A DNA stretch of 64,000 nt from an uncultured Spirochaetota bacterium (GCA_963727175.1 CAVSFD010000002.1:4701381-4765380), one strand, 5' to 3'; positions 2,345 to 62,634 are shown, numbered from the stretch's first letter. The notes: a model not told the origin generated them from the letters alone. Numbers and translations: made by a program.

Positions 2345-3399
2345 CTACTCCAGCGCCTTCTGTATCTCGGCCAGCACCTCGTCGGGAAAGGGTATCCCCC
2401 CGCCGGGCCTGCCGTAGAATGATATCTTCGCGTCCTTGTGCGCGTTAATCTTCACGTCATAGAGCATCTGGCCGGTGTTCATTTCCACAACCAGTATCTT
2501 TTTAATTCTTTCGGAGTGACGGTATACCTGCTTTTCAGGGAACGGGAAGAGCGTGATCGGCCGGAGCAGCCCTATCTTCATTCCCTGCTCCCGTGCCATC
2601 CGTATCGCCGTCTTGGCGATCCGCGCCGGGGTGCCGAAGGCCACGATCATCAGCTCCGCATCATCCAGGAACTTTTCCTCGCAGAGGACCTCGTTTGGCG
2701 CGGATTTCGTCATATTTTTTCTGAAGATCAAGGTTGTGCCGCTTCCTGTTCGCCGGGGCCCAGGTAGAGAGACTTGAGGAGCTTCGGTTTCTGTCCGTTG
2801 CGGCCTTTCAGCGCCCAGGGTTTTTCAGGAATGACGATGGGATGATCCGGAGTGAGCCGGCACGGCTCCTGGAACTGGCCCACCATGGCGTCCGCCAGAA
2901 TGACAGAGAGCATCCGGTACTTGTCAGCCAGTTCGAAGCCCTTGATGGTCAGGTCAAACATTTCCTGGACCGATGCCGGCGCCAGCACGATGTTATGATA
3001 ATCGCCATGACCGCCGCCATGGACAGCCTGGGTGTAATCCCCCTGGGTGGGGGATATGCCGCCGAGGCCCGGACCGCACCGCATGATGTTAACCACCAGA
3101 CCCGGGATTTCAGATCCGGCGATATAGGAGAATCCTTCCTGCATGAGGGATATGCCCGGGCCGGATGACGACGTCATGGCCCGCTCCCCCGACGCGCCGG
3201 CACCGAGGACCATGTTGATCGATGCGATTTCGCTCTCGGCGGGGATAAAGGTGCCGCCGTGTTTGGGGAGCTCCCGGGCAAGGTATTCGGGGATGTCGTT
3301 CTGAGGGGTAATGGGATAACCGAAGTAATACCGGCATCCCGCCTGTATCGCTCCCTCGGCAAGGGCTATGTTCCCCTTGGTCAGCTTCTTATCGGTCAT
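2345..3399 (-). CDS. 2-oxoacid:ferredoxin oxidoreductase alpha subunit, split into two ORFs (2728..3399 and 2345..2731) by an apparent frameshift or stop
   Basis: The N-terminal ORF (MTDKKLTKGNIALAEGAIQAGCRYYFGYPITPQ...) and the C-terminal ORF (...DDAELMIVAFGTPARIAKTAIRMAREQGMKIGLLRPITLFPFP) together make a normal ~350-aa alpha subunit. The junction sits at a TTGA overlap next to an A6 run. A third frame carries HNLDLQKKYDEIRAK, which reads like linker sequence. Confidence 0.7.
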
Positions 3400-3606
3400 T
3401 TGAACACCTCAATGGCGGTATCGGGGCACATGAGGGCGCAGGTTTTGCAGGCGGTGCACTGTGTCTTCCCCGTCTTCTGAAAACTGCGCCGGGAAATAAC
3501 CTACCCGGTTATGCTTATCTGAAACAACGATGAGCTGCTTGGGACAGAATTTAATGCAGAAATAACATCCTTTGCACCGGTCAGCGTCAATTGTAATGTG
3601 GGCCAT
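3396..3606 (-). CDS. 2-oxoacid:ferredoxin oxidoreductase delta subunit (2x[4Fe-4S] ferredoxin), with a 1-nt frameshift near the 3' end
   Basis: The ORF frame gives CKGCYFCIKFCP and then nonsense (EDGEDTVHRLQNLRPHVPRYRH). Removing one G from the GGGG run (plus-strand CCCC at about 3467-3470) restores a second CTACKTCALMCPDTAIEVFK* ferredoxin motif. That frame ends at a TGA that overlaps the korA ATG. Confidence 0.7.
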
Positions 3607-7568: not shown

Positions 7569-8396
7569 CTATTTCTCGATGCCGGGAATATCAGCCACTT
7601 CGCTGATCCGTTCCTTGATCTGCCTGAGGAGCTTGTCTTCGCCGGCGATTTTTATCAAGATTGCCTTTTGCGGACAGACCTCGGCGCAGCGCCCGCACCC
7701 CTTGCAGTCAGGCCCGATGACGGCCTTGCCCTTTTTCATCTCGATGGCGCATACAAAGCATTTGTCCACGCAGATTTCACAGCCGTCACATTTCTTCGGT
7801 TCAACACGGACCGTGATGCCGGGAAGTTTCTTGAAGGCATTATCAAGGGTGGGGCCCCTCTTTTTCATGTGTGTGCGGTAGATACAGTTGACGTCGTCGC
7901 AGAAACATATGAACATGAGGTCCCTGAAGCTGAGCCAGAAGGCGAAAGGATCAATCCACACATGGGCGACGTTGGCTATGAGTCCCAGTTCCCCGGCGCG
8001 GCGGATATGCTGGATGGCTTCTTTCGTGGTAATCCTGCGGCCGTGAGAGGGATGCATCCTTTTAATGGCCGGTCCCATGGCGATGCACCCGATATAACGG
8101 TCCTCGGTGGCGACCTTGTTGTGGTGCCGGCAGATACATTCATCAAGAACAAACTTTTCGTCAATTTCCGTGACAAGCTTTTCTACGATGTTGCGCGGCA
8201 GCGGCACTGACTTCGGAAAGTCAAGGTTAACGCTGATGGGGATCGATGTCACTTCATTGTGAGGGCGCATGAAAAACGGATTGATGATCCATTTCAACAC
8301 CGGCAGCGAGCTCCATTTTTTTCCGGCCCGAATGATCGGCCACGACAGCCACACCATGAAAGCCACCATCTTTTTCCCTGGACCGTGTTTGAACAT
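7569..8396 (-). CDS. Fe-S cluster-binding protein with a C-terminal 2x[4Fe-4S] ferredoxin-like domain
   Basis: 275 aa. C-terminal CDGCEICVDKC...CKGCGRCAEVCP motifs plus additional upstream Cys clusters (CICRHH, CFCDD). Confidence 0.55.
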   Translation of the reverse strand: MFKHGPGKKMVAFMVWLSWPIIRAGKKWSSLPVLKWIINPFFMRPHNEVTSIPISVNLDFPKSVPLPRNIVEKLVTEIDEKFVLDECICRHHNKVATEDRYIGCIAMGPAIKRMHPSHGRRITTKEAIQHIRRAGELGLIANVAHVWIDPFAFWLSFRDLMFICFCDDVNCIYRTHMKKRGPTLDNAFKKLPGITVRVEPKKCDGCEICVDKCFVCAIEMKKGKAVIGPDCKGCGRCAEVCPQKAILIKIAGEDKLLRQIKERISEVADIPGIEK

Positions 8397-8414
8397 GATT
8401 ACCTCGCCAATGTA

Positions 8415-8693
8415 TTATCTTTCAATGATGCCCTTTTTCAGCGGCAGCCACCAGGTGAACCCGTAGAGGATCGTCTTCAATACAACCATCGACGCGGGAA
8501 CCCCCTTATCCCTGCCTATTTTCAAAGACACCGCGGGGATCTCCACTACATGCAGGATCAAGAGGCCGATAAAAAATATCCTCGACATAAGGGGATCGCC
8601 GGGAAACAGGTAGCGTCCTAACGCCAGGGATAAACCATAAAGGACGATGGCGCCGATCATCAGGAAATACCAGAACATTTTGTTTTGAATCAT
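8415..8693 (-). CDS. Small membrane protein, hypothetical
   Basis: 92 aa with 3 predicted TM helices, immediately downstream of the Fe-S protein gene. Confidence 0.35.
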   Translation of the reverse strand: MIQNKMFWYFLMIGAIVLYGLSLALGRYLFPGDPLMSRIFFIGLLILHVVEIPAVSLKIGRDKGVPASMVVLKTILYGFTWWLPLKKGIIER

Positions 8694-8923
8694 ACCGCCT
8701 CCCAGTCGCTCTCATAATATATCACAAGAGTTAATAGAATGTCAAGTTGGACAATCGTCCAACTATCATCAATAGGTAAGCAGGGCTAAATGTCAACAAT
8801 TAACAATATATTCTTCAAGGAATTATTAGAAAGCCAGGAAGAGGGTACTACCGGGGTCAGAGCAACCATCTTGTGCTGGTTATAGCACCTTTATATAGCA
8901 TGACCACCTGTTATACGTTTTAC

Positions 8924-9002
8924 TCTGACCCCAATGCAACCGGAACCCGGGGTCAGAGCAACATGCCATGAAACAACTGGCCCCCATGCGATTGGGGGCC
9001 AG
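8924..9002 (-). terminator. Two stem-loops downstream of the secreted hydrolase gene. One has a 10-bp perfect stem (CTCTGACCCC / GGGGTCAGAG). The other has an 8-bp stem (TGGCCCCC / GGGGGCCA).
   Basis: Inverted repeats read in sequence at 8924-8959 and 8979-9002. They lie just 3' of the stop codon at 9034 of the minus-strand gene. Confidence 0.4.
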
Positions 9003-9033
9003 CAATGTCATCATATATACTATGCAGCGGTTG

Positions 9034-10077
9034 TTACCGGGTCAGCTGGGTAACGGCCTTGACCGGCGTACCGTCGCTCCAATTACCCATATCAAAGGTA
9101 AGAGTATTTTGTCCGTCCAGGGCTGCATCAAGGGCGGGCCAGAAAACCCGGTAGTCGAAAGCATCCACCTCGCCGTCGCCGCCGAGCATATTCATCGCCC
9201 AGCTGGGCATCCAGCCATCGTCGCAGATGGGGGCCATGTGGTCGGCTTTAAGGTCCTTGTCGCCATGAGTATCGGTATTGTACTGGTAAATCACCTTTGA
9301 TGGAGCATTCACCAGGGCATCATAGGCCTCATAGGCGGTCTCCGGCAGGGCAATGGTATCATCTGATCCGGTCAGTATAATGACCGGGACCGTGGTTGCA
9401 CGGGCCTTGGCATTGAAATCGAGCTCTGTCACGTCAACAAAGGCGTCAACAAAGGCCGGAATATTGGCGTACAAACAGGGGTCAGCAAGAACGATCCTCT
9501 TAACTGCCGGAGCAATGGCGGCGCCTTCATTATCTGCCCAGCAGAGGCTGATAAGGCCCCCCAGGGAGTGACCGAAAAGCACCATGTTGCTTCGGTCGGC
9601 CTTTGATCCTATCTTATTCAGGGCATCATTCACCGAATCGATGGTCCGGTGCATCATGTTGTACTGATTGTTATCGGTAGCCAGGCCTACGAGGCCGCCC
9701 TTGTTTATCTGCGGGAACAGGACGATGTAGCCCTGCCTGCAGAGGTGCTCGATATGGTCCATGTAAATATCAGGCGCCATAAGCATCATGCCGTGAAGGT
9801 AGATGACAACCGGCGCTTTGGTCCCGTTCTTCAATTTATCGGGGATATAATACCAGCACCAGTAACCGCTCCAGGGATTGTACCAGGCGCCAACCCTGCC
9901 CTCGGTAAAGCCGTTGCATATGTATTTAGCGGATGAGCCATAACCGGATACTGCCTGACCCGGGGCAGTTATCCCGGCCGCCCCGGCCGAATTGAAATCA
10001 CAGTTCAAGGAGAAAATCAGCACCAGCAACGCGATCAATAACAATTTACCCTTCATTGACAAGACCTCCCATTGCAA
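9034..10077 (-). CDS. Secreted alpha/beta-hydrolase (lipase/esterase-like, GHSLGG nucleophile elbow)
   Basis: 347 aa with an N-terminal signal peptide (MKGKLLLIALLVLIFSLN), a GxSxG motif (GHSLGG) and a YLHGM oxyanion-region motif. Confidence 0.7.
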   Translation of the reverse strand: MQWEVLSMKGKLLLIALLVLIFSLNCDFNSAGAAGITAPGQAVSGYGSSAKYICNGFTEGRVGAWYNPWSGYWCWYYIPDKLKNGTKAPVVIYLHGMMLMAPDIYMDHIEHLCRQGYIVLFPQINKGGLVGLATDNNQYNMMHRTIDSVNDALNKIGSKADRSNMVLFGHSLGGLISLCWADNEGAAIAPAVKRIVLADPCLYANIPAFVDAFVDVTELDFNAKARATTVPVIILTGSDDTIALPETAYEAYDALVNAPSKVIYQYNTDTHGDKDLKADHMAPICDDGWMPSWAMNMLGGDGEVDAFDYRVFWPALDAALDGQNTLTFDMGNWSDGTPVKAVTQLTR

Positions 10078-43438: not shown

Positions 43439-44437
43439 TCACCCGCCGATCTTTGACATGAACCCTGACCTGGTCAGGGCCGAGCATCCGCCCTCATCAG
43501 GGGCGCAATCGAGGCTGTGGCCCTCACCTTTCATTGAGACGGCCTTCATTATTTCCCCGCGGACCGTATCGTCGTCCGCCCCTTCGCGGAAAAGCTTTTT
43601 CAGGTCATGGTCTGCACTTGAATGCAGGCACGTCTTCAGATAACCATCAGAGGTGATCCTGAGGCGGTTGCAGGATGAGCAGAACTTCTTCGTAAGGGGC
43701 GGTATCACGCCGATCCTCATCCTGTGTCTCCCCCGGTAGCGGTAATCATACATCAGGGCGACATTCGTGTCGATATCCCTGTTGCGCTCAAGGTCTCCCC
43801 TGGCACGCAGTTCCCCGATGAGCTTATCCGATGAAAGGAAAGACCCGCCGGATTCATCTTTAACGAAGGGCATCTTCTCGATAAATCGCACGGTCACGTC
43901 CCGGTCTTTGAAAAATTCAAGATAATCATCCAGCTCGGCGATGGTCTCCCTGAAGAGCACCGCGTTCACCTTCACGTCAAAAAACCCGTGCGCCAGGGCC
44001 CTGTCGATGGCGGATAGTACATCGTCAAGGCCGTCACGCATCGTAATGGCACGATAGGTTTCCCTTGAAAGCGTGTCGAGACTGATATTAAGTTTTCTCA
44101 CCGCCAGGCGGCGCAGGTCATCGATATAATCGCCGAGCAGTATGCCGTTGGTGGTAAGACAGAGTTCAAGCCCCGGGTATGCATCCCTGGTCTTCGACAC
44201 GATATCGATAAAGCCCTTCCTGACAAGAGGCTCGCCGCCTGTGAAACGCACTTTCACGATGCCCATGGAAGCAAAAATGCCGATAAGCCTGACAAATTCC
44301 TCGTTCCTGAGGACCTGGTCATGCGGAAGCAGTTCCACGCCCTCGGGGGGCATACAGTACCGGCATCGCAGGTTGCATTTGTCGGTTATGGAAACACGCA
44401 GGTAGTCGTGTTTGCGCAGATAGGCGTCGGTAAGCAT
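43439..44437 (-). CDS. moaA: GTP 3',8-cyclase (molybdenum cofactor biosynthesis protein A)
   Basis: 332 aa with the rSAM motif CNLRCRYCMP, the C-terminal auxiliary cluster CSSCNRLRITSDGYLKTC and the GG tail. Confidence 0.85.
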   Translation of the reverse strand: MLTDAYLRKHDYLRVSITDKCNLRCRYCMPPEGVELLPHDQVLRNEEFVRLIGIFASMGIVKVRFTGGEPLVRKGFIDIVSKTRDAYPGLELCLTTNGILLGDYIDDLRRLAVRKLNISLDTLSRETYRAITMRDGLDDVLSAIDRALAHGFFDVKVNAVLFRETIAELDDYLEFFKDRDVTVRFIEKMPFVKDESGGSFLSSDKLIGELRARGDLERNRDIDTNVALMYDYRYRGRHRMRIGVIPPLTKKFCSSCNRLRITSDGYLKTCLHSSADHDLKKLFREGADDDTVRGEIMKAVSMKGEGHSLDCAPDEGGCSALTRSGFMSKIGG

Positions 44438-50317: not shown

Positions 50318-50797
50318 TCAATCATTTCCGCCGGTAACCGGAGAAATGATGAAGTTGTTCCTGAAAACAACATTGTCCGGCGCGATGCGGCAGGCCTCCA
50401 GGTACATCCGGAAGGCACCGTCCCTGTTGCCGGTTATCTCGTAAACGACCGCCAGGTTGTTGCGCGCGGCCGGTTCAAGGGCATCCTCGGCCAGGACCTC
50501 CCTGAAGAGAATCTCCGCCTGGCCGTACCGCCCCTCAATGGCAAGGTCAACGCCCCAGTTGTTAATGGCGGCAACCGGTGATAGACCGCTCTTCCGCGCC
50601 AGTACCTTCTTGGCCGTGACGTGGTACTGTGCCGTCAGGCTGCGGCCGCCGGCGGGGTCGGGGCGGTACAGGTCATGCCTGCGGTCTACCGATACGGTAT
50701 GGTAGCAGTAGCACGATTCCATGGCAAGGGACGCGAATATAGCGATTATCACCGCAAAACGTGTCACGGAATGCCTCCTTTCATACAAAGAAGACAC
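50318..50797 (-). CDS. TPR-repeat protein, probably periplasmic
   Basis: 159 aa with an N-terminal hydrophobic segment and TPR-like helices (AEILFREVLAEDALEPAARNNLAVVYEITGNRDGAFRMYLEACRIAPDN). Confidence 0.45.
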   Translation of the reverse strand: MSSLYERRHSVTRFAVIIAIFASLAMESCYCYHTVSVDRRHDLYRPDPAGGRSLTAQYHVTAKKVLARKSGLSPVAAINNWGVDLAIEGRYGQAEILFREVLAEDALEPAARNNLAVVYEITGNRDGAFRMYLEACRIAPDNVVFRNNFIISPVTGGND

Positions 50798-53123: not shown

Positions 53124-54176
53124 TCACATCCTGGCAATATATTCCCTCACCTTCCCGACCGATTCGCCCGGCGCGATCACGACAGGGTCCACCCCTGACC
53201 GCATGAGGCGGATGCGCAGGTCGCCGATGTCCCTCCTCCGGGCAGGGCAGCAGAGGTCCTCGATAAACAGGACCGCCTCGATGCCATGGCCCTTGATCAT
53301 CGAATAGAGAAGAGCGACACGCTCCTCCACAGGCCGCACCGACGGGCAGCGCGGGCGGTATGAAAAAGCGTCCAGTATTTCTCCATACAGGTCCGCCGAT
53401 TCATGGTTGTAGGACATGTCGAACTGCCTCCTGCCGCCGCAGGCGTCATCCTCCACGATGAGACACCCGGCGTCCTCGATCTCGTCCAGCAACGCCGCGT
53501 CGCAGGCAAAGCTCGCGTAGACCATCACCGGCACCGGGCGTACAGCCGCGCCGCTTTCCGCCCGGTTCAGCGCATCCAGGACCGATGCCAGGAACTCCGA
53601 AATCACGGCCGGCGGGAACATCACAGCCGCCTCCAGTATGACCCCCAGGTCGCGGCACGAGAGAAGGTCCGGCTTTTCACGCCGGGCCGATACGATTCCC
53701 CGCACCATCCTCCGCGCACTGTTGTACTCGGCGGTCACGGCAGCGAGCCTCCCGCGGTCAAGGCGGGACAGGCCGGGACACCCGGCATCCTCAAGAAGTT
53801 TTTCCAGGGAAGTCTCCATCATCCGGGATGATTCTTCACCCCAGCCGGCAGGGCAGTTGAATTCGTGCACCTTCAGTCGGGCTTCCCTCGTTCCTTCCCT
53901 GCCGGCGCATCCCCGCGGAACCACCAGGAGATCATAGACTCCCTCGATGCCGTCAATGGCCGGCACTCCCGCGGCGGTGCAATGACCGATCATCAGCGAG
54001 GGCAGCCGCAGTGGAACGAGCCCCAGGGCCGCGGTTATCTCTGCGGGGATCATATCGCAGGTGACGCCGGCCACGCGGGAGCCGGTCTCCTCCCGGAACC
54101 TGGCGACCGCCATGCCAGACTGATATATCATTTCCCTCAGGGGATCGACCAGATGTGAAAGCTTAGATTCCATCAT
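53124..54176 (-). CDS. 2-hydroxyacyl-CoA dehydratase / benzoyl-CoA reductase B/D-subunit family protein (orphan)
   Basis: 350 aa with the length and Cys pattern of the HgdB/BcrB/BadD family. I see no adjacent partner subunit or activator ATPase. Confidence 0.45.
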   Translation of the reverse strand: MMESKLSHLVDPLREMIYQSGMAVARFREETGSRVAGVTCDMIPAEITAALGLVPLRLPSLMIGHCTAAGVPAIDGIEGVYDLLVVPRGCAGREGTREARLKVHEFNCPAGWGEESSRMMETSLEKLLEDAGCPGLSRLDRGRLAAVTAEYNSARRMVRGIVSARREKPDLLSCRDLGVILEAAVMFPPAVISEFLASVLDALNRAESGAAVRPVPVMVYASFACDAALLDEIEDAGCLIVEDDACGGRRQFDMSYNHESADLYGEILDAFSYRPRCPSVRPVEERVALLYSMIKGHGIEAVLFIEDLCCPARRRDIGDLRIRLMRSGVDPVVIAPGESVGKVREYIARM

Positions 54177-54429: not shown

Positions 54430-55480
54430 GTGACACGGAGAATCCCTATGCCAGCGGCAAAATCAGCACAGAAAAAAAAGTCCCCAGCGCCCTACCTGTC
54501 CGTCGTCCTGCCGGTTTACAACGAGCAGGACAACATCAGGCTCCAGTACGAGGAGATCGTCAAGGCACTGAAACCGCTCAATGTCACCTATGAAGTCATT
54601 TTCATCGACGACGGCAGCATCGATTCATCGCCGCAGATCCTCCGCGACATCGCGAAAAAGGACCGCAACATCAAGGTCGTCCTGTTCCGCCGCAATTTCG
54701 GCCAGACGGCTGCCATGTCGGCCGGCATTGATTTCGCGGCGGGATCAATCATTATATTCATGGACTCCGATCTTCAGAACGATCCCAACGACATCGGCAT
54801 GCTGTTCAAAAAGATCGAGGAAGGATATGACGTGGTGAGCGGCTGGCGGAAAAAACGAATGGACAAGTTCTTTTCACGAAAGCTCCCGTCGCGGATCGCC
54901 AACTGGCTCATCGCCAGGGTCACCGGGGTCAAACTCCACGACCTGGGATGCTCCCTCAAGGCATACCGGAGCGAAATTCTGAAGCAGGTCAGCCTCTACG
55001 GCGAGATGCACCGCTTCATCCCGGTCCACGCGTCATGGATCGGCGCCAAGATCACGGAAGTACCGGTCATGCACCACCCGCGCAAATACGGCGCGTCAAA
55101 ATACGGCATCAAGCGCACCTTCAAGGTAATCCTGGACCTCATAACCGTCACCTTCATGGGCAAGTATTCCACCAAGCCGATCTACGTCTTCGGCGGCACG
55201 GGGTTCTTCATGTTCATGCTGAGTATTGTAAGCGGCATCGCGGTCATCCTGATGAAGGTGTTCCTCAACCAGTCCATGAGCAGGAACCCGCTCCTGATCC
55301 TCACGGTAATGCTGCATCGTCCTTTCCGTCCTGTTTATCCAGATCGGGATCCTGGCGGAAATCCTGATACGGATATACCACGAGTCCCAGAACAAGCAGC
55401 CCTACAGCGTGCTGGAAACGGTCAATATCGCCAGGAAGAACACGGTGATCATTTTTTTTCTTTTGCCCGCGAAGAGGAAC
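54430..55480 (+). CDS. GT2-family polyprenyl-phosphate glycosyltransferase (GtrB/ArnC-like), with a C-terminal frameshift near 55290
   Basis: Motifs are LSVVLPVYNE, FIDDGS and FMDSDLQND. After ...LLILTVML the expected C-terminal TM region (IVLSVLFIQIGILAEILIRIYHESQNKQPYSVLE) continues in another frame. The 3' end is uncertain because of a T8 run at about 55455. Confidence 0.65.
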
Positions 55481-56186
55481 TTCATCGGGTGCTTCTTGAT
55501 CTCCGCTGGCCACTTCGTCCAGCGTCCGGGAAGTTTTCCTCATGCTGCCGACAATGTCGATGATGTCCTTCTGCGAGTTCTGCAGAATATTGTTGATGTT
55601 CGCCATGCTCGTCGGCCAGGCTGGTGACAAGCTTGCGGATGTCCCCGCGGCTCTCCTGCGAGACTTCCCGGTAAAGGGTCACGATGGTCGTCACCTCGGT
55701 CAGCAGGGTGTTGACCTTGGCCATGATGTCCTCAATGCTGCCGGATTCGATCCCCTCGATAACGTCCCCCTCCATCAGGAAGGCGCCCTTCTTCTCCGGA
55801 TTGCGCAGCTCCACCACCGGGTCGCCGATGACGTTCTGGTTGGTGATGATGGCGGCGCAGTCCTCGTACAGCTCGATGTCCTTCTTGATGCGGAGGGTCG
55901 CGATGAAATGGAGGGCCGGTTTGAAGAGGGGCTGCACGTCGACGACGCGGCCAAGCTGGTGACCCTTGATCTGGACGGGTGTTCCCTTCTTCAGAGATGT
56001 GATGCTGTTCACCTTCACGTACACGTCCATGGTGGACGTGGCGAGTGAATAGCCGAGCTTCACCAGTATGAAGAGGACGATGACGACGGCCGGAACAAGG
56101 ACGAAGAGGCCCACCCGGTATTCGATCCTTCCCATTCCCTCGCGGATCCTGCCGATTATCATGTTCCTGTCGAATTGCAATTTCAT
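55400..56186 (-). CDS. mlaD: MCE-domain protein MlaD-like, with a frameshift in the C-terminal region near 55600
   Basis: N-terminal TM helix plus an MCE domain (VKVNSITSLKKGTPVQIKGHQLGRVVDV). The C-terminal coiled-coil region (ANINNILQNSQKDIIDIVGSMRKTSRTLDEV) is in a different frame. The exact 3' end is uncertain because of an A8 run. Confidence 0.6.
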
Positions 56187-56197
56187 ACACCCTCGCG

Positions 56198-56935
56198 TTA
56201 GCGGATCTCCATGGGCCCTTCCAGGGCCATGTCCCTGAACTGGACCAGGTAGGGGTTATCTGACTCGAGGAATTCCCCGCGTGTCCCCGAGAACACCATC
56301 CTCCCTTTATACAGCATACGAAAGGTATCGGCAAAATCAAGATATTTTTGCGGATCATTGGTCATGAATACCACCGACCTGTCCGGGCGCTCCACGCGCC
56401 GCTTCAGCACGTCCATGAAGGAGCGGATATTGAGGGGCGACTGGCCCACAAAGGCGTGCTCGATGATAAGCAGGTCCGGGTCATGGGCCACCGCCCGGCC
56501 GTAGGCGGTGCGGAAGATCTGGGATGCGGTAAGGGCCACGGGCCGCAGGTTCCTTTTATCGAGGATATTCAATTCCCCCATGAGCCGTTCCGTGATGCCG
56601 GTGATCTCCTCCGGCGAGTACTCGGAATAATAGTCAAGGCGCAGGGAGATGTTCTGCTCAACGGTCATGTTGGAGATGAGGCCGTATTCGCCGTGGAGGT
56701 AGCCGATCTCGTTCTTGTAGCGAAGTTTTCCCAGGTAATCGAGTCCCTGCAGCGTGGATCCCCGGTACCGTATGTCGCCGGTATACAGCTCCTCCAGGTT
56801 CAGCATCAGCTGCGACAGCGTCCGCAGTCCCGACTCCTCGACCCCGAAAAAAACCGTGTTCTCGCCGGTCCCTATGGAAAAGGAGAGATTCTCAACCGGC
56901 TCGGCGGCCGTCGCAGGATACGTTGATGAATTCAA
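56198..56935 (-). CDS. mlaF: MlaF-like ABC ATPase homologue with degenerate nucleotide-binding motifs
   Basis: It aligns with MlaF, but Walker A GPSGxGKT(T) is replaced by GVEESGLRT and signature LSGGM by LTASQ. Walker B DEP is replaced by IEHA, and the H-loop His by Asn. Confidence 0.65.
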   Translation of the reverse strand: MNSSTYPATAAEPVENLSFSIGTGENTVFFGVEESGLRTLSQLMLNLEELYTGDIRYRGSTLQGLDYLGKLRYKNEIGYLHGEYGLISNMTVEQNISLRLDYYSEYSPEEITGITERLMGELNILDKRNLRPVALTASQIFRTAYGRAVAHDPDLLIIEHAFVGQSPLNIRSFMDVLKRRVERPDRSVVFMTNDPQKYLDFADTFRMLYKGRMVFSGTRGEFLESDNPYLVQFRDMALEGPMEIR

Positions 56936-56951
56936 TCAGCGGGGCCATATC

Positions 56952-57782
56952 CTACTCCAGCCACACGTAATAGAAGGCCACCGAAATGGCAACATTAAGC
57001 AGGACGATGAAGAAGAGCGTCCGGCTCACCGCGCGTGACACGAAGATCGGGATCTCGAACTTCGACCGGGGCATCATCCCGTAGTAGCAGCTGATGAGGG
57101 GAATGAGCAGGCCGAAGGTCAGGCTCTTGAGGATGGTGGCCGTCAGATCTTTAAGAGAAAAGGCCAGGATCAGGTTCTGGAAGAACACGTCCAGGGGAAT
57201 GTAAATCGTCGAGAGGGATATAAAGTAGCCGCCCAAAAAGGCCGCGATATCGAAAAATATAATAAGTGAAAATATCGAGATAATCGACGCGGCGATGCGG
57301 GGTATCACGATGTAGAGGCGCGGGTCAATGCCTGATATCTCCAGGGATAGTATCTCCTTGCTCCACTGCTGCGTCGCCGTCTCGGTGGCCATGGCGGTCC
57401 CGGACCGGCTTATCACGATGAGTGCCGTTACCAGGGGCCCCAGCTCGCGGGCAATGATGATCACCAGCAGGTTGCCGAAATATCCCTCGATGCCGTACTT
57501 CGGCAGGTTGGTCTTGCCCTGGATTATGACCACGCCCCCCAGGAGCATCGCTATGACGATGACAATGGGAAGCGCGTCGATGCCGGTATACCGGGTCTGG
57601 TTCAGGATGATAGTATTAATCGCGCGCATACGGATAAACTGCAGCGACTTGAAGGACTGGAAGATGGAATATACGTAAGTACCGAAGTCCCGGACCCCGT
57701 CCCAGAATCGCAGAGCTGCCGCGCCGACGGCAACCGGCAGCGCCACGCCCCGTGCTCCATTGTTCTGATTATCAGCCATTGC
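56952..57782 (-). CDS. mlaE: ABC transporter permease MlaE
   Basis: Polytopic permease with MlaE-like conserved segments (ARELGPLVTALIVISRSGTA). The start was chosen at MADNQ. Confidence 0.8.
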   Translation of the reverse strand, partial: AMADNQNNGARGVALPVAVGAAALRFWDGVRDFGTYVYSIFQSFKSLQFIRMRAINTIILNQTRYTGIDALPIVIVIAMLLGGVVIIQGKTNLPKYGIEGYFGNLLVIIIARELGPLVTALIVISRSGTAMATETATQQWSKEILSLEISGIDPRLYIVIPRIAASIISIFSLIIFFDIAAFLGGYFISLSTIYIPLDVFFQNLILAFSLKDLTATILKSLTFGLLIPLISCYYGMMPRSKFEIPIFVSRAVSRTLFFIVLLNVAISVAFYYVWLE

Positions 57783-58013
57783 CAAACCCTTACGGCCACA
57801 TTCTACCCGGCAGGGAGATACTATCACAGGGACGATAAATTTATCAATTACAATTTGTTAACAGACGCGGTGATGGTGCTCTATAATAATATATTCCTTG
57901 ATAAAAATATCTATTGCTATATACATATTCATGAGTTGTGGTTTTTTTCCAATATGCGATTTTTCACAGCCGCATGGATCCCTTTCAGAAATAACACTCG
58001 CCAGGAGGGACTG

Positions 58014-58835
58014 ATGAAACGACTGTTTGTAAGTGTAACAGCGATAATGTTCATTGCGATGATGGCGTACGGTCTTGATGAAACTGATCCGGAAAAACGC
58101 GAGATAATAAAGAAGGACCCCCGGCAGGGCAGAATGGAGTCTCAGGGAGGCAGGTCCCGTGCGCGGCTCAAACCCGGCGAAACAGGGATAGGCGGCATCG
58201 CCTTCGTGAACATTCCCGCCGGAGAATTCATGATGGGCTCGCCCAATTCCGATCCCGAAAGCAATTTCGCGGAAAAACCGCAGCACACGGTGCATGTGGA
58301 CTCATTTCACATGAGCGTGTATGAAATCACCCAAGCCGTGTACGAGGAGGTGATGGGAAAAAATCCCAGCCGCCAGAGGGGCGGGAACTTTCCCGTGGAA
58401 AACGTGACCTGGAACGATGCCGTGGCCTTCTGCGCAGCATTTTCGAAAAAATACGATGTGGCGATGAGGCTCCCTACCGAGGCTGAATGGGAATACGCCT
58501 GCCGCGCCGGCACTGTGACGCGGTATTACTGGGGCGACCAGTTCGACAAGACAAAGGTTATCTCGCGCGACAGTGCCGCAAGGCCTTTCCCGGTCGGCAG
58601 CCGGCAGCCGAACCCATGGGGACTCCATGACATGCTCGGCAATATGCAGGAATGGTGTCTTGACGTATACGATGTCGGTTATTACGCCAAGAGCCCGGCG
58701 AAAAATCCCGCCGGTCTTGTAAACAGCGCCTCGCCATGGCGCTCCATACGCGGAGGGGGTTTCACGTCGAGCCCCCGGCGGTGCCGCTGCGCCTACCGGC
58801 TGGGCGATTACACGCACTATGCGGGCGCCTTCTAG
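58014..58835 (+). CDS. Formylglycine-generating-enzyme (SUMF1/FGE-sulfatase) family protein, secreted
   Basis: Signal peptide followed by the FGE-sulfatase domain (NVTWNDAVAFCA, RLPTEAEWEYACRAGT, GNMQEWCLD, RGGGF). Confidence 0.75.
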   Translation: MKRLFVSVTAIMFIAMMAYGLDETDPEKREIIKKDPRQGRMESQGGRSRARLKPGETGIGGIAFVNIPAGEFMMGSPNSDPESNFAEKPQHTVHVDSFHMSVYEITQAVYEEVMGKNPSRQRGGNFPVENVTWNDAVAFCAAFSKKYDVAMRLPTEAEWEYACRAGTVTRYYWGDQFDKTKVISRDSAARPFPVGSRQPNPWGLHDMLGNMQEWCLDVYDVGYYAKSPAKNPAGLVNSASPWRSIRGGGFTSSPRRCRCAYRLGDYTHYAGAF

Positions 58836-58952: not shown

Positions 58953-60950
58953 TCACGGGGTTACGATATTGAAGTCGCTTTTGAAGGTGTCCATCATTCC
59001 CATCAATTCCGCGAGTTTTTTACCGTTGCCATCGATCTTTATGGTTCCTGCTGCGATTTCCTTTTCAAAGGTTGTTTTTTGCAGGGTAATTGCATCGAAT
59101 ATCGCCCGGCTGAGGGTTATCGTGACGTCAGCCCTGGGTGATTGAAAACCGGATTTATGCGTGAGCGCGCAGTTTTCCAGGTTCATGACATATTTCTCAC
59201 CAACATCCGTGAAATTCCAGTTTATGACCATCGTCTTGCCTTCCGCCTTGGGCCCGTTGAGGCATATGCCCATAAAATTGAAGAACATTGGGATGGTCAT
59301 TGCCTTAAGAACATCCGGGGTTAGGGTCGAGTTATATACATGGACCCCCGTGCGCAATTCATAGGCCGCGGTCAGGTAATTGCAGCGCCACGTGCCCGCC
59401 TCCGCCTGGTAGCCGAGCTGCTCCAGCGCGTCGGCCTGAAGGTTGCGCGCCTCCTTATTATTCGGATCGGCGAAAACAACCTGGTTCATCGCCTGGGCCA
59501 CCCAGCGGAATTCGCCTTTCCTGAAGTCCGCGCGGGCCTTGGCAATAACCGACCTGGCGCCGCCCATGTACTGGACATACTTTTTGGCGGATTCAACGGG
59601 CGTCAGCGGGTTGAGATTGGCCGGATTCATGTCGTACCACCCCAGGTATTTCTGGTACACGGCCTTCGCGTCATGATTGATTGTTCCATAATAGCCGCGG
59701 GCATGCCACTTGCGGGCAAGTGTGGACGGCAGCTTGAGCATCGGGCCGATTTCATTCATGGTATAGCCTTGATTCGCCAGCCGCAGCGTCTGGTCATGAA
59801 CATACTTATACATGTCACGCTGGTCTTTCAGGAAATCGATGCATCTGTCATGGCCCCACCGCGGCCAGTGGTGCTGGGCAATGAGCACCTCTGTTTGATC
59901 ACCGAATGAGTCAATCGCCTCATTCAGATAATCAGACCACTTTTCCGCGTCGCGCACCTGGGCCCCTCGCAGCGTCAGGATATTGTGCATCGTGTGACAT
60001 GCCAGCTCGGCGGAGTCCAGCACCTTGAACTGCGGAAAGAAGATCATCATTTCGGAGGGCGCTTCAGTGCCGGGCACCAAGCTGAAGATCATCTCCACGC
60101 CGTCAATGGTCCTCTTCTCCCCGGTTTTAGTAATAATGTCCGTGGGCGGAATAAGAGTGAGGCTGCCCAGTGAAATGGCTTTGCCGAGTCCGATATCAAC
60201 CATGCCCCGTTCACCCCGGGGCAGCAGATTTCCATACCAGTAATACGTGCGCCGGCTCATGGCTGCGCCGGCCGTAACATTTTCACTGATTGCCGCATCC
60301 ATGAAGCCATCCGGTGCGAGAATTCTGACCTTTCCTGCTTTCACATCAGTCTCTTCCACTACACCCTTAACACCTCCCCAGTGGTCAGCGTGGCTGTGGG
60401 TATAAATCACGGCTATGACCGGACGTTTGCCCCGCTGCTGGAAATACAGATCCAGGGCGGCGGCGGCTGGTTCCCTGGTCATCAAGGGGTCAATGAGGAT
60501 TAGACCCTTATCGCCTTCGATAATGGTCATATTCGAAACATCGAGGCTCCGCACCTGGTACACGCGGTCAACGACCTTGAAGAGACCGGAATACATGTTG
60601 ATACGTGCCTGGCGCCAGAGGCTCGGGTTGACCGTTGCAGGGGCATCTTTCTTCTTATTTATAAAATCGAAAGCATTCAGGTCCCATGCCACCATGCCGT
60701 TGCTCTCTTTTACTACTCCGCCCGGCAGGCCGATGATAAAACCGCGTTGCGCGTCAGCGAAATCATCCTGGTCATTAAAATTAAGTTCCTTCAGCACGGC
60801 GTTGTTGGCTTTTTTCGTGGCCGGGTGCGCATCCTTGGGCCCTTCAGCGCCAGCCCCTGCCTGAGCGGTAAATGCCGCTGTCATGATACACATTATAGCT
60901 GCCGTTATTAATACGGCTATCGCTCTCCTGAAAACTTTTTCTTTCATCAA
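58953..60950 (-). CDS. Metallo-beta-lactamase-fold alkyl/aryl-sulfatase (SdsA1/Bds1 family) with C-terminal SCP2-like domain, secreted
   Basis: 665 aa with a signal peptide. The HxHxDH motif is YTHSHADHWGG. Confidence 0.8.
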   Translation of the reverse strand: MMKEKVFRRAIAVLITAAIMCIMTAAFTAQAGAGAEGPKDAHPATKKANNAVLKELNFNDQDDFADAQRGFIIGLPGGVVKESNGMVAWDLNAFDFINKKKDAPATVNPSLWRQARINMYSGLFKVVDRVYQVRSLDVSNMTIIEGDKGLILIDPLMTREPAAAALDLYFQQRGKRPVIAVIYTHSHADHWGGVKGVVEETDVKAGKVRILAPDGFMDAAISENVTAGAAMSRRTYYWYGNLLPRGERGMVDIGLGKAISLGSLTLIPPTDIITKTGEKRTIDGVEMIFSLVPGTEAPSEMMIFFPQFKVLDSAELACHTMHNILTLRGAQVRDAEKWSDYLNEAIDSFGDQTEVLIAQHHWPRWGHDRCIDFLKDQRDMYKYVHDQTLRLANQGYTMNEIGPMLKLPSTLARKWHARGYYGTINHDAKAVYQKYLGWYDMNPANLNPLTPVESAKKYVQYMGGARSVIAKARADFRKGEFRWVAQAMNQVVFADPNNKEARNLQADALEQLGYQAEAGTWRCNYLTAAYELRTGVHVYNSTLTPDVLKAMTIPMFFNFMGICLNGPKAEGKTMVINWNFTDVGEKYVMNLENCALTHKSGFQSPRADVTITLSRAIFDAITLQKTTFEKEIAAGTIKIDGNGKKLAELMGMMDTFKSDFNIVTP

Positions 60951-61155
60951 ATCCTCCCCTTCACATTAATGATAATACCTTGCATAGTTACTCCAACCGG
61001 ATTGCATGAACAATCCCGGTGAATTTAAATTGCTCTTAATATTTATAGCAAGAACAAATCAGTAATCAGGATAAGATTATTACCCTCCCGTAATAAAAAA
61101 ATCATTGATTATAGGGGACGAATATTATGTCATGTACCGCGATCGGGATTCCGTA

Positions 61156-62634
61156 ATGAAAAAAAATCTGAAATATATCATCGTCGCCTTTCTCGGGGCA
61201 TGCACCCTTCTGGCCGGCGTCATCACCCACCTCGACACGGTCCTGTACCTGCACGACTGCGCCCTCGGCTTTTACATTGAAACGGCCGAGACCCTGATCC
61301 CGTCAAGCCCCACCTATACGATAGTCAACCACCGCGATTACCGCCCCCAGGTTCGTACCTACGGTGACCTTCCCCGCGGATTCATTCACAGCGGGAGCAT
61401 CTTCATGTACCGGGCCGGGAAAGAGGACGAAGACCTGGGCGATATAGCATCGGAAGCGGTCCGCTACACCGATTTTTACCGGGCCTCATCACTGGCCGCG
61501 TCCATCCGTGAATACAACGGCATTCGGGGCACCGATATCCCGGCAGGGACCGCCCTGGTCATCCCCGGTTCCGCGCCGGCCCTGCGGCATGATCCGAGGA
61601 ACCGGGCCATGCCGCCCCTTATCACGGCCCGCGGCCTTTACTTCACCGGCACCAGCATAGGGGGGAGCAAGATCCTGGGGAACCTCGACCGGTTCAAGGA
61701 ACTCGGCATCAACACCATCGTCTTCGACGCCAAGGACATCGGCGGCGATCTCAGCTATTACAGCAGGCTCCCGGAAGTGCAGCGGCTCAATACCCATGAA
61801 AAGCGCAGTATCGACAATATCGAAAAATTCATCCGCACTCTCAAGGAGAACGGCTTCTACACCGTGGCGCGCATGGCGGTGTTCCACGACCACCTGCTCC
61901 GGAAAAAGGACCCGTCCCTGGCCATCAGGTCGCGCGGCGGCGGCCTGTGGAATTCCGAGGCGAAGGAAAAGTGGTGCGATCCAACCAGTAAAAAAGTGCA
62001 GGACTACAACATCGCCATGGCGCTGGAGCTTGCCGACATGGGAGTTGACGAGATCCAGTTTGATTATATCCGCTTCCCCACCAAGGGGAACGCTAAAGAC
62101 GCGGACTTCAAATACGATTTCGGAAAGATGTCCCGCGAAGAAGCCATCACGCATTTCCTCAAGCGGGCACATGAAGCCATTGCCTCCCGCAAATCGCGCC
62201 TGTCCATCGACATCTTCGGCGTTGTCGCGTGGGGAAAGGACGTCGACATCGAAAGCACCGGACAGAGGATCGAGCTGCTGGCGCGGCACTGCGACATCAT
62301 CTCGCCCATGCTCTATCCCTCGCATTTCAATGACGATTTCGACGGGTACGCAAAGCCGGGCGACAATCCCTACTATTTCATCTACAGCGGCTGCCGGAAG
62401 GTCCTTCACCTTGCCGGGAAGAACGTCGTTGTGCGGCCGTGGCTGCAGGCCTTCCGCTGGCGCGTTTCCCACTACAACAGCCAGTACATCAAGACGCAGA
62501 TCAAGGCCACGAACGAATCAGGAGCCCGGGGCTACCTTTTCTGGAACGCGGCAAACGACTACGACACGGTGCTCAGCGCCCTGGAAGACATTAATGGCGC
62601 AAAACCGGGGAAGGACGAACAGGGAAATGAATGA
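61156..62634 (+). CDS. Secreted protein with LysM-like segment and TIM-barrel glycoside-hydrolase-like (GHL) domain
   Basis: Signal or TM anchor at the N-terminus. The LysM-like stretch is YTDFYRASSLAASIREYNGIRGTDIPAGTALVIP. The C-terminal ~330 aa resemble the DUF4015/YngK-type hypothetical glycosidase family. The start was chosen at MKKNLKY. Confidence 0.5.
   Translation: MKKNLKYIIVAFLGACTLLAGVITHLDTVLYLHDCALGFYIETAETLIPSSPTYTIVNHRDYRPQVRTYGDLPRGFIHSGSIFMYRAGKEDEDLGDIASEAVRYTDFYRASSLAASIREYNGIRGTDIPAGTALVIPGSAPALRHDPRNRAMPPLITARGLYFTGTSIGGSKILGNLDRFKELGINTIVFDAKDIGGDLSYYSRLPEVQRLNTHEKRSIDNIEKFIRTLKENGFYTVARMAVFHDHLLRKKDPSLAIRSRGGGLWNSEAKEKWCDPTSKKVQDYNIAMALELADMGVDEIQFDYIRFPTKGNAKDADFKYDFGKMSREEAITHFLKRAHEAIASRKSRLSIDIFGVVAWGKDVDIESTGQRIELLARHCDIISPMLYPSHFNDDFDGYAKPGDNPYYFIYSGCRKVLHLAGKNVVVRPWLQAFRWRVSHYNSQYIKTQIKATNESGARGYLFWNAANDYDTVLSALEDINGAKPGKDEQGNE

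Follow-up and report, generated by a model that had tools for sequence, protein, structure and literature searches.

The MlaEFD complex is the widespread core of Mla systems, and MlaA, MlaB and MlaC are sparse outside Proteobacteria (PMC10665443). Among the described systems, the MlaFEDB complexes of Escherichia coli, Acinetobacter baumannii and Pseudomonas aeruginosa (6xbd, 7d06 and 7cha) share three homologous core genes with an operon that we analyzed in a 64-kb stretch of DNA from an uncultured Spirochaetota bacterium (the window, taken at its full length of 64,000 nucleotides). The operon is tightly packed on the minus strand and reads, in order, mlaE, a gene for an MlaF-derived pseudo-nucleotide-binding domain (pseudo-NBD) that we refer to as dMlaF, and mlaD. 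Whereas either of two substitutions in E. coli MlaF, K47A or E170Q, alone abolishes function, with no complementation and a non-functional system in vivo (PMC7367683), dMlaF has, on alignment, lost all of the motifs for ATP binding and catalysis. Because more than 50 uncultured spirochaete species share the dead motifs, this Mla-type transporter probably runs without its usual energy source. The three genes are as follows.

56952..57779, minus strand: mlaE permease gene, encoding 275 residues from an ATG at 57779; the longest open reading frame (ORF) reaches a GTG at 57827.
56198..56948, minus strand: dMlaF, the MlaF-derived pseudo-NBD gene, with its true ATG at 56948-56946 and its frame broken by an extra base at 56911.
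55449..56186, minus strand: mlaD, the MCE gene, matching Pfam MlaD (PF02470) at 2e-11 and E. coli MlaD at 6e-6.

The gene order given by the initial annotation of this locus, mlaE-mlaF-mlaD, held when each product was compared with Pfam: the first matched MlaE (PF02405) at 1e-52, the second ABC_tran, the family of ATP-binding cassette (ABC) domains, at 34.5 bits, and the third MlaD at 2e-11. The best PDB matches of the permease were MlaE of P. aeruginosa (4e-24) and of E. coli (3e-19). It keeps their coupling-helix region, RELGP...R.G.A...E, and is 72% identical over its full length to the orthologue in one related locus (L001). By these Pfam and PDB matches, an MlaE-type permease and an MCE-domain MlaD, the partners of the NBD in the MlaEFD core, are both present. 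The spirochaete operon further resembles MlaFEDB in the C-terminal motif of its NBD (..NP..xQ[FY]......GP) and in a fold that superposes on MlaF with a template-modelling (TM) score of 0.92. It differs in that MlaB is missing, dMlaF ends before the ‘handshake’ helix (Y261/L265/L266), the C-terminal helical region of MlaD is longer (about 240 residues in the protein against 183), and neither mlaC nor mlaA was found near the operon. The absence of an MlaB or STAS gene had been put forward as a further sign of an unusual system. We confirmed the absence, finding none in the operon, among its neighbours or within 10 kb on either side of six related loci, but it carries no weight as evidence, since MlaEFD without MlaB is common outside Proteobacteria (PMC10665443). 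The MlaEFD system of Veillonella parvula is a case in point: it is likewise a three-gene mlaE-mlaF-mlaD operon without MlaA, MlaB or MlaC, and its MlaF has a shortened C-terminal extension (PMC10665443). There, however, MlaF is treated as a normal ATPase and MlaD is long and spans the envelope, in contrast to the degenerate NBD and short MlaD of the spirochaete operon.

We aligned dMlaF residue by residue to A. baumannii MlaF (7d06), and the alignment bore out the initial annotation’s claim that all catalytic motifs are substituted. All of the former motifs lie on the minus strand.

56819..56845, minus strand: former Walker A motif or P-loop; GPSGTGKTT has become GVEESGLRT, with Leu for the Lys and Glu replacing Ser at P-loop position 3.
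56678..56704, minus strand: former Q-loop, GYLHGEYGL; LFQSG has become LHGEY, with Gly for the Gln; it opens the family’s most conserved block.
56519..56533, minus strand: former ABC signature; LSGGM has become LTASQ.
56450-56473, minus strand: former Walker B motif; MYDEPF has become IIEHAF, with Glu for the Asp and His for the catalytic Glu.
56435..56473, minus strand: former Walker B motif together with the D-loop, LLIIEHAF-VGQSP.
56354..56365, minus strand: former H-loop, MTND; SHD has become TND, with Asn for the His.

A census of these positions over 55 orthologues gave the same picture throughout the family. None has the Walker A Lys, which is replaced by Leu, Ile or Met, and all 55 carry Glu at P-loop position 3, with the P-loop Ser in 51. 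The Q-loop Gln is likewise found in 0 of 55, its region holding His in 51 and Asp in 44. The signature has the consensus L[TS]xS[EQ]; its Ser occurs in 53 of 55 orthologues and a Glu after it in 44. At Walker B, 51 of 55 have Glu for the Asp, and the next residue is His in 39; the catalytic Glu occurs in none and is replaced by His, Tyr or Phe, and this second position varies across the family (H, Y, F, N or Q). A single orthologue has the H-loop His, with Tyr or Phe in 53 (Tyr in 46). The replacement residues are thus themselves conserved. On this alignment, every residue for binding ATP and Mg or for hydrolysis is replaced across the orthologues of dMlaF, from which we infer that the protein can neither bind nor split ATP. 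Correcting errors in the window’s sequence does not restore canonical motifs either, as they are gone from all 55 orthologues.

Both sequence and structure identify MlaF as the ancestor, in agreement with the initial annotation, for which a spurious alignment had been a concern. The single dMlaF sequence retrieved A. baumannii MlaF first among PDB entries (4e-16), in an alignment that extends to the last residues of both proteins. A profile of the dMlaF family also placed MlaF first (1e-33 and 1e-28), over positions 2-249 and including the C-terminal MlaF motif; the next NBDs from outside Mla systems followed at 1e-27, a modest margin. An AlphaFold model built on the family alignment reached a predicted local distance difference test (pLDDT) score of 95.1 and a predicted TM score (pTM) of 0.90. 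It consists of a RecA-like core and a helical subdomain, and matched more than 1200 NBDs in the PDB with TM scores of up to 0.92. Foldseek ranked MlaF in MlaFEDB complexes first and second (TM score 0.92, root-mean-square deviation about 2.1 Å). The C-terminal motif is located as follows.

56201..56260, minus strand: C-terminal MlaF-type motif DNPYLVQF......GPMEIR, matched in the alignment by ..P.V.QF.....GP.. of E. coli and A. baumannii MlaF.

In the family, this tail (..NPYLVQY......GPM.I) aligns to residues 236-254 of E. coli MlaF and ends short of the terminal helix that carries Y261, L265 and L266; the reciprocal ‘handshake’ extension of E. coli MlaF comprises residues 247-269 (PMC7367683). 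By sequence comparison and predicted structure, dMlaF is an MlaF derivative with the ABC nucleotide-binding fold. Its divergence shows in curated annotation: its 34.5 bits against ABC_tran (PF00005) lie slightly above the 25-bit cut-off, it scored 47.3 bits against the NCBIfam MlaF equivalog NF008809 where 441 are required, and all curated NCBIfam cut-offs lie far above it. PGAP labels its relatives ‘ATP-binding cassette domain-containing protein’. Some pipelines label such proteins ‘MlaF ATPase subunit’, which overstates what the sequence supports.

The degenerate gene is not peculiar to one genome. A protein search returned about 60 clusters of 249-253 residues, 39-89% identical to the query, from metagenome-assembled genomes (MAGs) labelled ‘Spirochaetes bacterium’. 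We then scanned one genome per GTDB species and found dMlaF in 54 species, all represented by Spirochaetota MAGs, many of them labelled uncultured Leptospirales. Using hidden Markov models built from the operon proteins, we recovered mlaE, dMlaF and mlaD in identical order in 54/54 species, with short or overlapping gene junctions in every one. Intact orthologues in these species carry identical substitutions, ruling out sequencing error as the source of the degenerate motifs. For close pairs, the ratio of non-synonymous to synonymous substitution rates (dN/dS, Nei-Gojobori) was 0.17-0.27 for dMlaF, 0.10-0.17 for MlaE and 0.07-0.19 for MlaD; dMlaF is clearly under purifying selection, comparable to that on its partners. 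These values fit a pseudo-ATPase kept for a non-catalytic role better than a decaying gene. Conservation was also unevenly distributed along the protein. The mean frequency of the top residue was highest in the block formed by the Q-loop and groove (0.84), which in ABC transporters is the contact site for the membrane subunit; it was 0.67-0.75 in the former catalytic motifs and 0.49-0.73 in other regions, placing the former motifs above most of the rest of the protein. dMlaF is therefore a fixed and selected component of the operon in an uncultured lineage of Spirochaetota. One genome of the clade (L044) has a second MCE/MlaD-like ORF of 313 residues (2476-3417; a weak match of 33 bits) that lies 7 kb upstream of the operon, directly before radA, so some genomes in the clade carry extra MCE proteins.

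Partly degenerate relatives surround this clade. In a profile search of 1.84 billion representatives, members of the window’s clade scored 276-328 bits, and the next-best matches formed a second tier at 150-210 bits that includes Turneriella sp. MAGs (the P0085 family) and a Spirochaetia MAG (P0073). The second tier shares with dMlaF the P-loop Glu (GPE.SG), an L[ST]xSE signature, the H-loop Tyr, a QCP or QSP D-loop and the C-terminal motif. Unlike dMlaF, the majority of these proteins still have the Walker A Lys, and the Walker B Asp and Q-loop Gln are kept by some. Where we inspected the loci of the second tier, in a Spirochaetia MAG (L062, 10001-11568) and a Turneriella-type genome (L063, 8001-9487), the MlaF-like gene is paired with mlaD, whose start it overlaps, and no mlaE lies alongside; in L063 it also overlaps the end of a MiaB-like radical-SAM gene. 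All members of known source come from Spirochaetota, and the window’s clade is the extreme end of this wider radiation of degenerate MlaF-like proteins.

Non-canonical motifs are familiar from ABC transporters with one degenerate site, such as TM287/288, TmrAB, CFTR NBD1, TAP1 and Pdr5, where selected departures at Walker B, the H-loop and the signature serve regulation and not hydrolysis (PMC7756269). Those transporters, however, have one site that is fully competent, and their degenerate site continues to bind ATP, whereas dMlaF is a single NBD gene without Walker A, Q-loop, signature, Walker B or H-loop. As the only NBD of the operon and an expected homodimer that has lost all motifs, it would leave both composite sites dead. 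We found no account in the literature of an NBD encoded by one gene and presumably homodimeric that has been retained although both of its sites are dead. Nor did our literature search return a description of a degenerate MlaF, of a pseudo-ATPase in an MCE system, or of Mla in spirochaetes or Leptospira, in keeping with the initial annotation’s remark that the arrangement is not well described for Mla systems.

Lipid transport through MCE proteins does not always depend on an ABC subunit: PqiABC and LetAB (YebST) of E. coli work without hydrolysis by one. These systems, however, lack an NBD-like subunit, and their membrane subunits, PqiA and LetA, do not belong to the MlaE-type ABC permeases. 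For the spirochaete operon we hold, with a little better than even confidence, that dMlaF is a catalytically dead descendant of MlaF that serves as a nucleotide-free clamp on MlaE, and that MlaE and MlaD form with it an ATP-independent lipid conduit. The initial annotation had predicted a non-hydrolysing pseudo-ATPase scaffold, and this is supported at the level of sequence by the presence of the Walker A Lys, Q-loop Gln and catalytic Glu in 0 of 55 orthologues, together with the MlaF fold and purifying selection. Hydrolysis by the operon’s own NBD is a poor candidate for the driving force, judging from the absence of all catalytic motifs. In the mechanism that we propose, a dMlaF dimer would stay docked on the coupling helices of dimeric MlaE and, having no ATP cycle, would act as a structural or regulatory clamp that keeps the permease from changing its conformation. 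An ATP-independent conduit, along which phospholipid could move down its gradient, would then be made up of the MlaE cavity and the pore of the MlaD hexamer. Such a mode would be akin to the passive transfer seen in vitro with E. coli MlaFEDB, from which lipid passes to apo-MlaC independently of ATPase activity (bioRxiv 10.1101/2020.06.04.133611).

Several points weigh against this proposal. In the same E. coli work in vitro, the ATP-binding mutant K47A abolished the export signal measured by Förster resonance energy transfer (FRET) (10.1101/2020.06.04.133611), so a fully passive mode is not firmly established even in E. coli. Loss of nucleotide binding and hydrolysis is predicted from motifs, and the docking of dMlaF on MlaE and its dimerisation are presumed. 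A canonical MlaF-like ATPase may be encoded elsewhere in the genome, by analogy with mycobacterial MceG, and a pocket with a new ligand would explain the conservation of the substituted active-site residues just as well. Finally, real frameshifts in dMlaF and mlaD (three in the latter) would mean an inactive operon in this one genome. The direction of Mla and MCE lipid transport and the purpose of ATP in it are still debated. The dMlaF operon would offer a natural test of how far MlaE and MlaD can work in the absence of an ATP cycle and of the structural contribution of an ABC NBD, questions of relevance to the ABC-transporter and envelope-biogenesis fields.

The alternative that survives best, one already raised by the initial annotation and in our view unlikely, is that the transporter is still driven by ATP: a canonical MlaF- or MceG-like ATPase encoded elsewhere would replace dMlaF at times or heterodimerise with it, and dMlaF would be an accessory or regulatory paralogue. 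Mycobacterial Mce operons, which use one ATPase, MceG, encoded apart from the operons, are the precedent for an ATPase acting in trans. Like the spirochaete operon, Mce1-4 supply no working ATPase of their own, and MceG (8fed), a close relative of dMlaF, matches it in structure and in sequence. The dMlaF-mlaD pairs without an adjoining mlaE in L062 and L063 also imply that components of such systems can be dispersed. Operons served in trans, however, are without an NBD gene, and the Mce operons draw their power from active MceG, whereas the spirochaete operon retains a dead NBD gene, which keeps the canonical slot in 54/54 species under purifying selection. Moreover, no part of dMlaF is better conserved than its groove for docking on the membrane subunit, so that dMlaF and the second ATPase would compete for one pair of sites on the MlaE dimer. 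A heterodimer with a canonical NBD would, given ABC architecture, have two defective composite sites, one without Walker A and B and the other without the signature.

Neither the window nor the surroundings of the 54 loci yielded a candidate for this second ATPase. The pattern GxxGxGK[ST] does not occur in any of the six frames of the window, and a scan for Walker A together with Walker B found no operon-linked canonical ATPase within 10 kb on either side of the loci in 54 species. In about 1 Mb of related loci the same scan returned only two canonical NBDs, one of which carries the signature ASGGQ. We rejected both as partners of the operon. The first (L024) starts 18 nucleotides after a gene for an FtsX-type permease of 780 residues and hence belongs to that system, and the second (L051) is ABCF-like and 8 kb away.

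Under a second alternative, the former ATP pocket has been repurposed to bind a metal ion or small metabolite, or a nucleotide without hydrolysing it, and thereby gates the MlaE-MlaD conduit; we regard this as rather improbable. The substituted positions of the pocket are not drifting (P-loop Glu in 55/55, signature Ser in 53/55, Walker B Glu in 51/55 and H-loop Tyr in 46/55), and the better conservation of the former motifs than of most other regions of the protein is in line with it. In related clades with GPExSGK the Lys is kept, whereas catalytic Glu, signature Gly and H-loop His are missing, so that these proteins resemble an intermediate that binds but does not hydrolyse. On the other hand, the variable second position of Walker B (H, Y, F, N or Q) argues against a repurposed pocket, and residues that merely form a permanent, nucleotide-free dimer interface would show equal conservation; what the pocket might bind is conjecture.

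Taking the nucleotide-free clamp one step further, it is conceivable, though we would not yet count on it, that a diderm lineage runs MlaE-MlaD transport without an ATP cycle, with a pocket of Glu, His, Asp and Tyr that either locks a permanent dimer or senses a gating ligand. Were this true, the family and its Lys-keeping relatives, Turneriella among them, would form a natural series within one ABC family, from an ATP-driven pump through an ATP-binding switch to a nucleotide-free scaffold.

The remaining alternative, that the odd motifs and the frameshift come from errors in sequencing or from the decay of this genome’s mlaF into a pseudogene, is very improbable. In its favour, five 1-nucleotide insertions fall within 1.6 kb of the window, the database copy of the window’s protein was called from the identical truncated ORF, and a second long-contig MAG (L059) also has a split dMlaF. 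Against it, the substitutions are common to intact orthologues in 54 species with dN/dS at about 0.2, conservation of 48-90% past every frameshift marks the indels as errors or very recent, and no break is seen in the genes on either side, which encode an S41 peptidase, the HGD-D-like protein, MlaE and DUF4015.

The insertions themselves break dMlaF once, mlaD three times and the convergent GT2 gene once; in L001 and L008, by comparison, the operon genes are intact. We located the one in dMlaF by DNA alignment to an orthologous operon that is 85% identical, and the others by comparison with orthologues.

56911..56911, minus strand: 1-nucleotide insertion in dMlaF, TGCGACGGCC against TGCG-TGGCC in orthologues.
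55611, 55506 and the A8 run 55452-55459, minus strand: extra bases in mlaD.
55319: extra base in the convergent GT2 gene.

Because 48-90% identity to orthologues persists downstream of each frameshift, the insertions are assembly errors or very recent mutations. Assembly errors are probably the likelier of the two, and not part of the biology, since all five are insertions, the window comes from a single contig of 4.8 Mb and L059 is split too. Three of the four insertions outside the homopolymer lie in GACG (minus strand), and the insertions could stem from systematic long-read error, at a methylated motif for instance, or from recent mutation. The question of the motifs is unaffected by the insertions. 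Further frameshifts in assemblies of the clade are possible: L059 has its dMlaF split into two ORFs (8395-9143), and in L060 (7371-8021) the gene is short at its N-terminus.

The insertion in dMlaF also explains the one coordinate of the initial annotation that did not stand. The ORF that it gave as the gene, 56198-56935, starts at an internal TTG (56935), whereas the true start is the ATG at 56948-56946. From there the protein reads MAPLIEFINVSC..., which is the N-terminus of all orthologues and lies in a different frame from the called ORF. The mlaE stop codon sits 3 nucleotides upstream of this ATG, and the mlaD ATG, preceded by GAGGGTG, follows 11 nucleotides past the dMlaF stop. After correction of its frame with tblastn and DNA alignment to orthologues, mlaD encodes 244 residues with the C-terminus ...EIKKHPMKFLFAGKRKK.

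The operon’s surroundings are also shared among the related loci, with the DUF4015, GT2, HGD-D-like and S41 peptidase genes syntenic in 32-47 of 54. As none of the four is an ATPase, we rejected these neighbours as energy partners. The HGD-D-like gene (2-hydroxyglutaryl-CoA dehydratase D-component family; 53124-54176, minus strand) lies downstream of the mla operon. It is found downstream on the same strand in 37 of 54 species, starting 4 nucleotides after mlaD in one of them (L005), and no activator ATPase gene for it was found nearby. Of the 54 related loci, 47 have the DUF4015 gene, a putative glycosyl hydrolase, as the divergent immediate upstream neighbour of mlaE. In the window it (61105-62634) has been moved about 3 kb away, and the space holds genes for an FGE-sulfatase-domain protein (57855-58835) and an alkyl-sulfatase (58953-60950), which look like an insertion between mlaE and DUF4015.

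Elsewhere, an Rfam scan of the window gave no matches. Farther from the operon, the segment 44785-50300 has a GC content of 41-46% against about 54%, and is bounded on one side by a MoaA-like radical-SAM gene (43439-44437) and on the other by a TPR gene (50318-50797). This segment contains a methyltransferase gene, two truncated GT4 fragments (166 and 167 residues) and a fragment of a MATE/MurJ-like flippase (126 residues), and looks like a variable polysaccharide-synthesis island with fragmented genes. The equivalent place in a related locus (L006) holds an intact GT4 gene and an epimerase gene.

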